DNA of 64,000 bases, taken from positions 1 through 64,000 of IMG/VR virus record IMGVR_UViG_2974508059_000001; one strand, 5' to 3'. Positions within the stretch are counted from its first letter, which is position 1, and each line of letters opens with the position of its first letter. This stretch comes from a virus. Lineage: Duplodnaviria > Caudoviricetes. Shown here in pieces: positions 33,699-38,744 of this stretch. The position numbers were made by a program, and so were the translations under genes. Under the pieces are notes generated by a model that was given only the letters and a program-made list of their open reading frames with translations, did no database searches and was not told the origin of the DNA.

Positions 33699-35396
33699 AT
33701 GCGCTATACGATTCACATTACCCACACGAGCATGGGTATACGTGTGGAGGTGCCTGTCCGCCAGATGGAAGTGGCGATACTGGACTGGGCACAGGCGAAT
33801 CTGCACGCCCCGAAGATGGGCAAAGACCATGGAAGGATAGTGACGGAGAAAGGGGATGGCTTTTATGTCCACATGCCAACCATCCACACCTTTATCTTTC
33901 ACAAAACATTCTTGAATCGCATTCAGTCCATCCTCAATCACGTGGGTGTAGAGTATAAGGTTGACTACGAAATCCGGGAACATCATTACCCCCGCGCAGA
34001 ACCGTATCGGTGTGAATTCGCCAACTACGGTTTTGAGATGGTGGTAACGGATGAGACCTCACGTTTCTTTTACCAGAACGAAGTGGTGGAGACAGCCTGT
34101 TCAGACGGGCAGGAACAAACCATCTTCGCGATACAGACCGGAAGGGGCAAGACCAAAACCTTCCAGAAAGTCATGGTGAGAAAAGGTGTCAGGACAGCGT
34201 TGATACACCGAGCCTCTTACGTTGATAAGTGGAAGTTTGACTGTAGCGAAGACCCCACCGGTCTGCAAGAGCCCGCAGAAGGCGTGCACGTTTGTAAAGG
34301 AGTTGAAGGGATATACGAAGCCTACCAGATGGGCCTCAACGGGGAACTGGATGCGAAGGGGATAAAGATAATCATCTTCTCAACCACCTCACTCATGATG
34401 TTCTTGAAAGAGTACATCAATACCGCCCACTCCAACGCCGTGTGCTTAGAGAAGTTCTACGACGTGATGGGTGTCGGGCTGGTTGGGTGTGATGAGGTGC
34501 ACGAACATTTCTATCTGGTGTATCTGGCCGGGATCATGCTGAACCCGCCGGCAACCGTCGAGATGTCCGCAACCTTAACCCCGGGTGCCAGCAAGCAGTT
34601 TATTGGTGAACGCTACTTAGAGCGCTTCCCGATGAATTGTCGTGTGTCGGTGCCGTTTATCCCGGTTGTTGATGTGCGTGCTTTGTACTACAGCATCGAG
34701 AACAAGAAGCTTGTGACATACGGATCGAAGATGACCCCGTATAACCACAAGATGCTTGAGAAGGCGTTTGTTAAGTATAATGCACACGAGTCGTTCGCCG
34801 AGATGGTGTGGGACTTGATGGTTAAAACCTACCTCAAGAACTATGAGGTGGGTCAGAAGGCACTGGTGTTCTTTGCCACTGTTGACATGTGTGCGTTCTT
34901 TACTGAATTCTTGCAACGTAAGCTCGCGGCAACCGAGTGGGACTACTTGCAGGTGTTCAAGTATAATGCGGGGGATTCGTATGATGACTTCATCGCAGCC
35001 GATATCGGAGTGTCGACGCCGGGTAAAGCCGGTACCGCTATCGATATCCCGGGATTAATGCACGCGTACGTGACTATCCCAATTGATGACCAGCAGCTCA
35101 ACGAGCAGATTGCCGGTCGTCCACGCGCAACAACACGCTGGCCGATTGACCCGCGTGTCTGGTTCCTGCACTGCAATGATATCCCTAAACACGGGACGTA
35201 CCTGAGCTCACGCAAGAAGTCGTTGGGTGAGAAAGTCAAGTCGTTCCAAATCGCATTTTCGCCCTACGTTATCAGGAGCAGCAATGCTAGTACCTCCTAC
35301 TCCTTCGCTTCCCAAACCCCCGTACGCCGGATTGAACTTAGCAAGTTTTCTCCAAAACGTTCTAAGGGCGTATCCCGGCGCAGAAGACGTCGCTAA
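33699..35396 (+). CDS. SF2 (DExH) helicase (phiKZ gp75-like)
   Basis: TGRGKT, DEVH, SAT, QIAGR. Confidence 0.9.
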   Translation: MRYTIHITHTSMGIRVEVPVRQMEVAILDWAQANLHAPKMGKDHGRIVTEKGDGFYVHMPTIHTFIFHKTFLNRIQSILNHVGVEYKVDYEIREHHYPRAEPYRCEFANYGFEMVVTDETSRFFYQNEVVETACSDGQEQTIFAIQTGRGKTKTFQKVMVRKGVRTALIHRASYVDKWKFDCSEDPTGLQEPAEGVHVCKGVEGIYEAYQMGLNGELDAKGIKIIIFSTTSLMMFLKEYINTAHSNAVCLEKFYDVMGVGLVGCDEVHEHFYLVYLAGIMLNPPATVEMSATLTPGASKQFIGERYLERFPMNCRVSVPFIPVVDVRALYYSIENKKLVTYGSKMTPYNHKMLEKAFVKYNAHESFAEMVWDLMVKTYLKNYEVGQKALVFFATVDMCAFFTEFLQRKLAATEWDYLQVFKYNAGDSYDDFIAADIGVSTPGKAGTAIDIPGLMHAYVTIPIDDQQLNEQIAGRPRATTRWPIDPRVWFLHCNDIPKHGTYLSSRKKSLGEKVKSFQIAFSPYVIRSSNASTSYSFASQTPVRRIELSKFSPKRSKGVSRRRRRR

Positions 35397-35723: not shown

Positions 35724-36326
35724 ATGTCACAGCGCAAAAAGAAACCCGCTTATAATCCACGTAAACTTGCACGTGAGCGTTTAGAGAAGCTGATGGCGAG
35801 CATCTTCTACGTTCAGGATATGTTCACCGCCGAGTCGGGTAAAATCGCAAAACGTTTGGATATGGACTTAGCCGAAATCACCGGCACCACCGAACTGGAT
35901 GCGTATAAGCGTGAACAGACTGAGCGTTCGAAAGCCGCCTACATCGGCCTTATCAGTCAGGTCAGTAAAGACCTGTCAGCCGTCATCGTCGCTGCCGACA
36001 ATGCTGCGGGTCAGGTTGTTGCTGACTTGAAAGTGCGTCCGTGGAAAGAGATGAAGGATGCGGCGTTTATCGCTGAATTGGCATTGGAGCACCACTCCAC
36101 GGAAGCTGCAATCGCCGGTCAGAAATACACCGGTCTGATTCTGGAAATCATGCAGGACTACTTCCGCAACATCGAATTCGTCTGCCGTGAAGTCAAAGCG
36201 GGCCGTTCGGTTGAAGATGCGAAGAAGACCCTGACTGAAAATATCGCGAAAGAAGCAGAAGTTGCTGCGGCAGCCGCTGCTGAAGTTGCGTCTGCTGAAA
36301 AGGAAACTGTCGATGTCGCAGAATGA
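35724..36326 (+). CDS. Hypothetical helical protein with basic N-terminus (200 aa)
   Basis: TAAGGA RBS. Confidence 0.8.
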   Translation: MSQRKKKPAYNPRKLARERLEKLMASIFYVQDMFTAESGKIAKRLDMDLAEITGTTELDAYKREQTERSKAAYIGLISQVSKDLSAVIVAADNAAGQVVADLKVRPWKEMKDAAFIAELALEHHSTEAAIAGQKYTGLILEIMQDYFRNIEFVCREVKAGRSVEDAKKTLTENIAKEAEVAAAAAAEVASAEKETVDVAE

Positions 36327-38331
36327 AGGGCGTCCGGGCTCCGGTCGCGTTGCGCCGTCAGAGAGCAATGATACTGCTCAACTGATGGCCATCATGGAAG
36401 CTAACCCGTCTCTGGGCATTGCTCAGGCCCGGGTGTTGCTTGACGAACAACGTGGGCTCGCTAAGCTGGAAGAGCAAGAGAACGCTCAGCCAGTAGTCGC
36501 CCCTCCTCAACCTACTGTGCGTGAAGATATCGCTCCGGCAAACATCACACACCAACACGTTCACGTGGAGCCGCCTGAACCACTGCAAGCTGCTCCGCTG
36601 GACGTGAAGCCGCAGGAACAAGCGGTGCAGCCGCTTCATCCCCCTATTCGCTCTACAGCGTTTATGGATGCGGCGGTGGCCGCCGCTGCGCCTGCTGCCC
36701 CTTCTTTTTTGCCTCCGGAAGAGCCACAGCCTGCCCCTGAGCCGTTGACTGCCCAACCGGTAGCCCAACCTGCTCAGACCGCAGAGCCACTCTTGCCAGA
36801 GCAGGAAGAAGAACGTGTGCCGGATTATCAAAAAGCGGGTAAGCCGACCATCCGTCTGGGCAAGTCACTGGCCACCAGTGAAATCAACGCTATCGATTCT
36901 GAAGACCAAGAACTCCTGCTACTCGGCATGGGTGATCTGGTGGGGCCGATGCAATCCCTGCCGGAAATGCAAAAGCACGTGAATCAGTTCTTCTCAAGTT
37001 TGGAACGTGACCCGCGCACCAATGCGCCACTGTTCCGTTCTGAGGAAGAAGAAAGCACGTTCTCACGCCTGCAAGCGGCACTGGCAAATACCCCGCCGAC
37101 TGCCCCGGGTACGCGTAGCGCCAGCTTCGACATGGCAATGGGTCGTGAAGACACGGTGTGGAACCAAGGCATTCAGCCTGACGGTCAACCGTACCGTGGT
37201 GTGGTCAGTGTGAACACCGGCGGTAAAGGTGCTATCGCTGCACTGCGCCGTAAACGTAAGTCAGGTTCGCCGTCTACGGTCTTCCTGCCTGCGTCCGGTT
37301 TCTGCATTAGCTTCCGTGCCCCACACGAACGTGACTTCTGTGACTTCGATATTCGCATGGCGCTGGAAACCGCGAAAGTGGGCATGAGTTCCTACGGGTT
37401 GCTGATGTCTGCCTCGTCCGGTATCTACGTGCGTAACATCGTTGAGTTCTGTCTGCTGTTTGTTGAAGGCTGTTCACTGGAACTCGGCGGGGATGACCTG
37501 AAGACCACCCTTATCGATCGTATCGATAAAGATGACTACTGGTTCATTATCGTCGGCATGTTGGCGGCGAAATTCCCATCGGGTATTCCGTGGGGCTTAA
37601 GCTGCCTGAACCCGGCGTGTGACCACGTGCAGGAAGGGCGTCTGAATCTGGCCCGTGCGATTCGCATGGGAACCAGCTTACTGGCTGATGAGCAGCGCCA
37701 GCTGTATTACCGTCAGCGCAGTGAAGATGCCTCTGAAAACACCATCACGTACGAAGAGCAAACGCAGTACCGCCAGCAGCACAAGTCGGTGGCCGCGTCT
37801 ATCTTTGAGAAAGACGGTGTGACGATTGAGTTCGGTCGTTCTTCGCTGGGTGACTTCTTTGATGTTACCGAAGAGTGGGCGGATGAAATCAACGAAACCA
37901 CTACGCGGGCGTTGACTGACTATGCCACCGAAAAAGACCGTGAGACCCATCTGCGTGTGAACGCGGAGTCTCGTCGTCTGACGCGTTACCTGCACATGGT
38001 GAAATCCATTTCGATTGATGAAGGCGAAGGTCGGGTGTCGAAAGCCACCAACCGGGCTGAAATCAAAACCATGCTGGCAGAGATGTCGTCTGACCGTCTG
38101 TACGTGACCGAGTTCGAAGCGGCGGTAACGAAGTTCACCGAGATGTCTCGCTTGGCGGTGTTTGGCTACATGGGCAAGAAGTGTCCACAGTGCCAGCATT
38201 CGCAGGGTGAGGCCGACGGTGACTTCCGCGGTATCGTGACCATCTCACCGGACAGGGTTTTTTTCGCGCTATCTCGTGCGGTGTCCGCAATGCAGAGGCT
38301 TTGGCTCAGTCAATACGCCGATATTGGCTAG
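36313..38331 (+). CDS. Putative tail/baseplate-hub assembly chaperone (T4 gp26/gp51-like; phiKZ gp77 position)
   Basis: Pro/Gln-rich N-terminus; CLNPAC and CPQC Zn pairs; ..DRVFF near the C-terminus. Confidence 0.55.
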   Translation: MSQNEGRPGSGRVAPSESNDTAQLMAIMEANPSLGIAQARVLLDEQRGLAKLEEQENAQPVVAPPQPTVREDIAPANITHQHVHVEPPEPLQAAPLDVKPQEQAVQPLHPPIRSTAFMDAAVAAAAPAAPSFLPPEEPQPAPEPLTAQPVAQPAQTAEPLLPEQEEERVPDYQKAGKPTIRLGKSLATSEINAIDSEDQELLLLGMGDLVGPMQSLPEMQKHVNQFFSSLERDPRTNAPLFRSEEEESTFSRLQAALANTPPTAPGTRSASFDMAMGREDTVWNQGIQPDGQPYRGVVSVNTGGKGAIAALRRKRKSGSPSTVFLPASGFCISFRAPHERDFCDFDIRMALETAKVGMSSYGLLMSASSGIYVRNIVEFCLLFVEGCSLELGGDDLKTTLIDRIDKDDYWFIIVGMLAAKFPSGIPWGLSCLNPACDHVQEGRLNLARAIRMGTSLLADEQRQLYYRQRSEDASENTITYEEQTQYRQQHKSVAASIFEKDGVTIEFGRSSLGDFFDVTEEWADEINETTTRALTDYATEKDRETHLRVNAESRRLTRYLHMVKSISIDEGEGRVSKATNRAEIKTMLAEMSSDRLYVTEFEAAVTKFTEMSRLAVFGYMGKKCPQCQHSQGEADGDFRGIVTISPDRVFFALSRAVSAMQRLWLSQYADIG

Positions 38332-38744
38332 ACAGCGAGCACGTTTCAACCGAGACCATCATCACGACCTTAAAGCTTGATGCCACGTCACTCTTTAAAA
38401 GTCGTAAAGGCAAACCCATCACGTATCAGGAAGCACACGACACGTTGTTGGGGGCGTTCGACGATGCCATTGAACATGACACCGGGCCAAACTCGGTGTT
38501 CTTCTCTGACTTCGACGACCCGCTGACCGGTTCTCTGTTGGACATCTGGTTGGACACGTACATCCGTGAGCGAATCGGTGAACGGTTCAACCTGTCGTTT
38601 GATGAATTCCTTGACCGTCCCCGTTATGAAATCATGCGCATGATAAGTGTCGTTGGGCGTTATAACGCGGTGGTCAATCGGGAAATCAACAAAGCAGGGA
38701 AAGATGTTGACTCGTTGGAACAACAGTTGCACGGGAAAACGTAG
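38301..38744 (+). CDS. Chaperone-associated ORF, possibly the -1 frameshift extension of the upstream gene
   Basis: TTG start with poorly spaced RBS; FNLSFDEFLDRP resembles tail-chaperone GT C-domains; in the -1 frame. Confidence 0.6.
   Translation: MAQSIRRYWLDSEHVSTETIITTLKLDATSLFKSRKGKPITYQEAHDTLLGAFDDAIEHDTGPNSVFFSDFDDPLTGSLLDIWLDTYIRERIGERFNLSFDEFLDRPRYEIMRMISVVGRYNAVVNREINKAGKDVDSLEQQLHGKT

Follow-up and report, generated by a model that had tools for sequence, protein, structure and literature searches.

Probable recoding at the 3' end of a jumbo-phage gene

Within the 64,000-nucleotide stretch of tailed-phage DNA analyzed here (the window; positions 1 to 64,000 of IMG/VR record IMGVR_UViG_2974508059_000001), a long open reading frame (ORF) at 36313 to 38331 overlaps a small one that gene finders begin at a TTG codon (38301 to 38303) and end at 38744, raising the question of whether the locus holds two genes or a single gene with two products. 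The initial annotation favored the second view, proposing a programmed -1 ribosomal frameshift in a chaperone pair of the G/GT type. From comparison of the sequences, it is probable that ORF 36313-38331 encodes a T4 gp26-like jumbo-phage protein made in a short and a long form through a -1 slip of the ribosome. The junction features described below all lie on the plus strand.

The 0-frame ORF starts at ATG 36313 and encodes the short form of 672 amino acids (aa), a member of phrog_8054 (E value, 1e-272). A run of seven T residues, read from the sequence, occupies 38258 to 38264. The 0-frame codons at 38257 to 38265 are GTT TTT TTC, which places a true X_XXY_YYZ slippery heptamer, T_TTT_TTC, in register at 38259 to 38265, as the initial annotation had stated, with TTT in the P site and TTC in the A site. 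The 0-frame stop codon, TAG, lies at 38329 to 38331; its position was given correctly, and the distance from the heptamer, put at about 22 codons, is 21 codons after TTC. No stop interrupts the -1 frame between 38223 and its own stop at 38742 to 38744, in agreement with the claim that it is open from the heptamer into the small ORF. The extension in this frame (38265 to 38744; 159 codons plus the stop) belongs to phrog_7580 and is a homolog of phiKZ gp76.4. Joining the two segments, join(36313..38265, 38265..38744), gives a predicted long form of 651 + 159 = 810 aa, in agreement with the length first estimated. The 66 nucleotides (nt) between the heptamer and the end of the 0-frame ORF (38266 to 38331) are constrained in both frames, encoding the C-terminal helix of the short form in the 0 frame and the start of the extension in the -1 frame.

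In the mechanism we propose, most ribosomes would read TTT TTC straight and terminate 21 codons on, producing the 672-aa short form with its C-terminal alpha-helix. A fraction would slip one base back on T_TTT_TTC, the two tRNA-Phe molecules re-pairing with TTT TTT, and would translate 159 more codons to give the 810-aa long form, in which the terminal helix would be swapped for a linker and a helical domain of about 130 aa ending in a long helix. The slip is presumably made by the ribosome rather than by RNA polymerase, and the long form is likely the minor product. By analogy with lambda gpG and gpGT, both forms may act together in assembly of the tail or baseplate hub.

The N-terminal region of the short form (approximately residues 1 to 290; 36313 to 37180) is of low complexity, rich in P, A, Q, and E, and has no equivalent in phiKZ gp77 (533 aa); its modeled part (model residues 1 to 48) is predicted to be disordered, with a predicted local distance difference test score (pLDDT) below 50. 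The AlphaFold model of the short form (predicted template modeling score, 0.77) places a terminal helix at residues 506 to 531, and the 0-frame tail is conserved among homologs as Phe-Phe-x-Leu followed by an amphipathic stretch. Given this conserved tail and the modeled helix, the short form looks like a finished protein rather than a by-product. The extension is predicted to be all-helical, consisting of a linker and a C-terminal domain with a long terminal helix (pLDDT, 83).

Conservation of the site among phiKZ-like phages

The junction was read in 20 lineages of phiKZ-like (Chimalliviridae-type) phages, and those sharing the site include SPN3US, Vibrio, Aeromonas, and Ralstonia phages as well as one Bacillus phage. 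All 20 lineages have a run of 5 to 8 T residues, most often 7, at the homologous Phe-Phe, and all carry the tetramer T_TTN in register at this position; the full heptamer T_TTT_TTN is present in 17. Its form is T_TTT_TTC in Wellington-, Seoul-, Erskine-, Machina-, and Derbicusvirus, a 41%-identical metagenomic lineage, Vibrio phage XC32, Aeromonas phage AhC3_1, and Aphroditevirus; T_TTT_TTT in phiKZ, RAY, KpLz-2_45, JM-2012, RSL2, an Elvirus, and BUCTxx100; and T_TTT_TTA in Bacillus phage AgentSmith.

A -1 ORF of 152 to 193 codons follows the site in every lineage, and in phiKZ, AgentSmith, pVa-21, and Aphroditevirus the -1 frame opens merely 8 to 15 nt ahead of the run. The extensions are mutually homologous, with a DRPR-type motif that reaches even the Bacillus phage. 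When the -1 frame from the slip codon onward was used as a tblastn query, the alignment started at residue 1 in 58 enterobacterial jumbo phages, and in all but one of these records two ORFs are annotated under the match. The initial annotation had named the T run and the frame relation as features to look for in homologs, and the loss of the slippery site, or stop codons in the -1 bridge, as observations that would speak against a frameshift. The run, the register, and the frame relation recur in 20/20 lineages, and the bridge is open in each of them.

Selection on the run and on both frames

Codon usage at the junction departs from that of the remainder of these ORFs, in which the other Phe codons number 138 TTT and 277 TTC (33% TTT). 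The first Phe codon of the pair, in the P site, is TTT in 19/19 lineages (joint probability of approximately 1e-10, with lineages treated as independent). RSL2 has TTT at this position though its 18 other Phe codons are all TTC (0/18 TTT). Likewise, the codon preceding the P site ends in T in 17 of the 20 lineages compared with an expectation of 30% (P = 6e-7). By these comparative measures the nucleotides of the T run are shown to be under selection themselves, and the codon statistics, together with the recurrence of run, register, and frame relation in every lineage, mark the site as more than chance.

Codon-phase entropy was calculated for 19 distinct sequences of the enterobacterial clade. 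Upstream of the run, the values at 0-frame positions 1, 2, and 3 were 0.48, 0.37, and 1.08, respectively, with the maximum at third positions as for a gene read in the 0 frame. Past the 0-frame stop they were 0.42, 1.41, and 0.77, the maximum having moved to 0-frame position 2, which is the third position of the -1 frame. In the 66-nt overlap the values of 0.29, 0.60, and 0.64 indicate constraint on both frames, and 43 of 93 columns there are invariant in 16 diverged sequences whose proteins are approximately 50% identical elsewhere. As far as alignments can show it, the -1 frame is under purifying selection from the slip site onward.

Heptamer strength, stimulators, and possible slippage by RNA polymerase

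Heptamers of the type U_UU.U_UU.Y belong to the most efficient -1 class in Escherichia coli and are used by insertion sequence (IS) elements, and the tetramers U_UU.C and U_UU.U rank directly behind A_AA.G in the same host (PMC4066793). Several observations nevertheless weigh against a programmed ribosomal frameshift at this gene. The support for it is comparative throughout, and the argument from register is weakened as the conserved Phe-Phe fixes the register by itself. The perfect heptamer is missing from Noxifer and Phabio, which have G_TTT_TTY, and from pVa-21, which has CTT TTT with only the in-register tetramer T_TTT; in these three phages the A-site tetramer alone is kept. No conserved or unusually stable structure was found downstream of the site (RNAalifold, -1 kcal/mol with no covariation), and the folding energies were not better than those of shuffled sequences (z scores from -0.7 to +0.6). 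The homopolymer found in every lineage, which could also serve a polymerase, and the sequence searches against gp26 described below count on the same side.

The hairpin to which the initial annotation drew attention (TGCGG-TGT-CCGCA, with a 5-bp stem and a UGU loop) is present at 38277 to 38289, 11 nt past the heptamer, but is weak (z score of the window, 0.25) and not conserved as such, making it a weak candidate stimulator. A 5-bp stem lies 6 nt past the heptamer in 11 of 16 sequences, and the window group has its hairpin at 11 nt instead. Upstream, a Shine-Dalgarno-like AGGG was considered as a stimulator and rejected, as it stands directly before the run in some lineages only, with AGAC in others. 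The lack of a conserved or stable downstream structure suggests that the efficiency of frameshifting may be low, or at most moderate, in which respect the site would resemble the stimulator-poor site of lambda G/GT.

The alternative that survives best, although we regard it as unlikely, is programmed transcriptional slippage, in which the phage or host RNA polymerase would stutter on the A-run template and add one U, so that standard translation yields the same long form. A T run is a classic substrate for such slippage, and 5 to 8 T residues are found in every lineage. These phages also transcribe with their own unusual multisubunit polymerases, and a downstream stimulator of ribosomal shifting was not found at the junction. 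Known transcriptional slippage sites usually comprise a homopolymer of at least 9 nt, and the runs seen here fall below that length with no trend toward longer ones; Noxifer, pVa-21, XC32, AhC3_1, Aphroditevirus, and Phabio have merely 5 or 6 T residues. Furthermore, all 20 lineages have kept T_TTN at the A site in the 0-frame register, a constraint that a slipping polymerase would not impose. The sequence UUUUUUU is depleted in all three frames of E. coli genes, possibly through slippage (PMC4066793), which again favors the polymerase. On balance a slip by the ribosome is still preferred.

Start codons of the downstream ORF

Public annotations call a separate small ORF at this locus, which would fit two separate genes, the second started at TTG 38301 or another internal start, with the T run being incidental. 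Vibrio phage pVa-21 offers the best case for this, as it has an ATG 62 nt past the upstream stop together with its imperfect heptamer. We consider this explanation highly improbable. In the window, TTG 38301 is the sole ATG, GTG, or TTG in the -1 frame before codon 61, and an AGAGG-like stretch, ending at a distance of only 2 nt upstream, is too near to serve as its ribosome-binding site; the initial annotation had rightly called the spacing poor. The codon is not conserved even at 77 to 90% identity, its position reading CTG in pEa_SNUABM_11 (L001) and two further relatives (L013 and L019) and CTT in SPN3US, and it is probably unused. Three loci (L001, L028, and L032) are without ATG, GTG, or TTG across the first 61 to 68 codons of the conserved -1 protein.

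Among the homologs compared, no conserved start or Shine-Dalgarno sequence was found in the -1 frame. Candidate starts are scattered and without Shine-Dalgarno sequences, so the start chosen by annotators and gene finders changes from one genome to the next. Conservation of the -1 protein begins at the slip codon, up to 68 codons ahead of any possible start, and in distant lineages its frame opens just ahead of the run; two separate genes would also leave the selection on TTT and on the preceding T unexplained. Independent initiation at 38301, which the initial annotation had listed as an outcome that would contradict a frameshift, thus finds no backing in an unconserved TTG without a usable Shine-Dalgarno sequence, and a programmed -1 frameshift joining the two ORFs, with no credible start at this position, is strongly supported by the comparison.

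Apparent fusions of the two ORFs

In a set of 1.84 billion representative proteins, the extension has 34 relatives, all of 66 to 186 aa with varying starts except one of 312 aa. The 35 full-length upstream homologs in the same set range from 633 to 705 aa, none being near 810 aa in a survey that covered proteins up to 1176 aa, and no genuine in-frame fusion was found in the set. Approximately 30 public records were inspected, and each has two ORFs except SEGD1, which has one misread ORF.

The least probable explanation of all is a pseudogene, or one 810-aa gene split by a sequencing error in the homopolymer. In its favor, such runs are prone to errors, the SEGD1 record has a single ORF of 795 aa (SEGD1_042), and the 312-aa metagenomic protein P0005 also reads through. 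Against it, the frame is split in over 60 genomes and metagenome contigs that were sequenced independently and have runs of 5 to 8 T, a universality among homologs that argues against an artifact, and both frames are under purifying selection. The two apparent fusions were rejected because in both an indel or scrambled patch, lying ahead of a T7 run that is itself intact, moves the reading into the -1 frame and destroys the CPxC motif.

SEGD1 is otherwise near-identical to SPN3US. Comparison of the two (L004:3425-3455 against L002:3425-3455) revealed that a scrambled 29-nt patch replaces 28 nt just upstream of the T7 run, putting the upstream ORF early into the -1 frame, so that one 795-aa protein is annotated without the segment from CPxC to the slip site. 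The patch is probably an assembly error. An early frame change of the same kind is seen in P0005. A further protein, P0006 (165 aa), carries SPN3US-type extension blocks in a rearranged, roughly reversed order and is more suggestive of misassembly or an artificial entry than of natural variation.

Probable relation to T4 gp26

What kind of protein is produced from ORF 36313-38331 was addressed through predicted folds and motifs. T4 gp26 is listed as a baseplate hub assembly chaperone (PMC3004832). Its C terminus consists of CPEC, 12 residues, FFELL, and the stop, and the chimallivirus consensus is CPxC ... IxPID ... FFxL. The two proteins share, in the same order, a first Cys pair, a beta segment, CPxC, and Phe-Phe-x-Leu at the C terminus. 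A search of the ESM Atlas gave a feature match of 0.90, the matched cluster having PF12322 in 24% of its members. Using Foldseek against the predicted models in BFVD, matches to "Baseplate hub assembly protein, bacteriophage T4-like" were obtained with E values of 4.4e-4 (TM score of 0.52 on the target) and 1.6e-2 (TM score, 0.54), and "baseplate hub" proteins of SP-15, ACP17 ("hub assembly chaperone"), VH7D, 2050H1, and phiA8-29 followed at 1e-2 to 6e-2; these gp26-family matches rank after the chimallivirus homologs.

Sequence searches were less favorable. Neither the window protein nor nine diverse homologs matched PF12322 at an E value of 1 or below, a profile against which T4 gp26 itself scores 215 bits, and hhalign gave a probability of 17% against T4 gp26 and of 1% against a 17-sequence gp26 alignment. 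No solved structures were found by sequence search, and Foldseek and VIA-align comparisons of both models with the PDB returned only generic helical matches (E values of at least 0.3; Z scores of at most 5.8 over 45 to 57 residues). By hhalign, the extension had no relation to T4 gp51 or gp25. The product of ORF 36313-38331 is therefore a probable, not a proven, distant relative of T4 gp26, an assignment drawn from predicted folds and a motif.

The differences from T4 gp26 are considerable. The T4 protein has 208 aa and ends 3 residues past Phe-Phe, which is encoded by TTC TTT and is not followed by a -1 extension, whereas the jumbo-phage proteins have large insertions and, in the window, a low-complexity N terminus of 140 to 290 aa. 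T4 gene 26 also gives two products, but by internal initiation (the 26' coding sequence). In T4, gene 25 starts in the -1 frame of gene 26 via a TAATG overlap (L038:7800-7806); as there is no slippery run at the T4 Phe-Phe, this looks like ordinary translational coupling and not recoding.

Comparison with known frameshift systems

Tail assembly chaperones of long-tailed phages reportedly have a conserved -1 frameshift, as described by Xu, Hendrix, and Duda in 2004, with E/E+E' of P2 as another case. Like lambda gpG and gpGT, the window pair has a heptamer toward the 3' end of a gene for an assembly-chaperone-like protein, short and C-terminally extended forms that would share their N-terminal part, and no strong stimulatory structure. 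As in the chaperones of long-tailed phages, the frameshift is kept across very divergent phages and the sequences are not. The two systems differ in that the family of the window protein is unrelated to gpG-type proteins in sequence and fold, jumbo phages have a short form of 530 to 700 aa rather than approximately 140 aa as in lambda gpG, the gene is located elsewhere than between the tube and tape-measure genes, and T_TTT_TTY takes the place of a G_GGA_AAG-like heptamer. Unlike lambda G, the jumbo-phage short form keeps its own conserved tail of 11 to 30 codons (the helix). Of the "G/GT-type chaperone pair" in the initial annotation, the predicted pair of a short and a long form, produced by a -1 shift close to the 3' end, and a predicted chaperone-like (gp26-like) fold are retained; set against these are a length of 672 aa, the absence of a Pfam match for either part, tail-assembly-chaperone families included, and a location away from the tail genes. 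Since family, size, genomic position, and heptamer all differ, the gene is best placed as an analog of lambda G/GT and not a member, with the label right as an analogy only.

E. coli dnaX (tau/gamma) and IS3/IS1 share with the window an X_XXY_YYZ heptamer and two proteins with a common N-terminal part, and U_UU.U_UU.C is among the heptamers used by IS elements. Those sites differ in their clear stimulators, with a Shine-Dalgarno-like sequence upstream and a hairpin or pseudoknot downstream, of which the window has no evident counterpart. In addition, the shift in dnaX yields the shorter product.

A more speculative extension, which we hold only tentatively and think doubtful as a whole, is that the frameshift is ancestral and group-wide in nucleus-forming jumbo phages, with hosts from Bacillus to Pseudomonas, and that the gp26-like protein is the contractile-tail counterpart of gpG/gpGT, its short form chaperoning a hub or tape-measure complex and the helical extension of the long form recruiting another tail component. 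If true, this would hint at the role of T4 gp26 and at why T4-type phages seemed to be without a G/GT-like pair.

The phiKZ-like phages are a heavily studied model, known for the phage nucleus and as therapy candidates, and the gene is common to the group. If a programmed frameshift operates here, a conserved isoform of approximately 700 to 870 aa is absent from annotations, small downstream "genes" such as phiKZ gp76.4 and SPN3US gp226 are annotation artifacts, and proteomic or genetic screens that treat both ORFs as separate genes misread their data. Short and long tail-assembly chaperones produced by a -1 shift would then extend to another protein family and to jumbo myoviruses, and would open a way to study hub chaperones of the gp26 type, which are poorly understood. 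For studies of frameshifting, including any contribution of phage polymerases or factors, the locus would also supply a U_UUU_UUY site that is natural, deeply conserved, and free of an obvious stimulator. No mention of a frameshift in this gene was found in the searchable literature (subscription-only literature being outside its scope), and the initial annotation likewise named none for phiKZ-like phages.

Gene family and neighborhood

The upstream protein is homologous to phiKZ gp77, SPN3US gp227 (locus tag), and Asesino gp56, so that the phiKZ counterpart of the window pair is PHIKZ077 plus PHIKZ076.4. It matched 242 phage records, comprising phiKZ-like phages of Pseudomonas, Erwinia, Salmonella, Serratia, Klebsiella, Ralstonia, Vibrio, Aeromonas, and others; a search for related loci with a single protein returned one close relative. 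Both PHROGs families are of unknown function. An identity with PicA/Imp1 (phiKZ gp69) was considered and rejected, as 0/16 published PicA residues or positions match the phiKZ-type homolog and the DHHT motif is not at the locus.

By annotation of syntenic homologs, the neighborhood consists not of tail genes but of genes for a DNA helicase, an RNA polymerase beta subunit, and a DNA polymerase; in phiKZ, gp77 and gp76.4 are flanked by gp75 (helicase), gp78, gp79, and gp80. A 200-aa ORF at 35724 to 36326 of the window overlaps the first 14 nt of the gp26-like gene. A small ORF (approximately 110 to 265 aa) stands directly ahead of the gene in almost all phage loci examined, for example phiKZ gp78, RAY gp268, and SPN3US gp228, with an overlap that varies and is sometimes absent; this ORF may be a conserved partner. 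Farther upstream, the helicase-like gene at 33699 to 35396 encodes 565 aa in the window and other relatives. Two metagenomic loci (L020:1-215 and L022:1-292) have instead a product of 907 to 909 aa with a LAGLIDADG_3 match, pointing to an intein in this gene or to a homing endonuclease inserted in frame.

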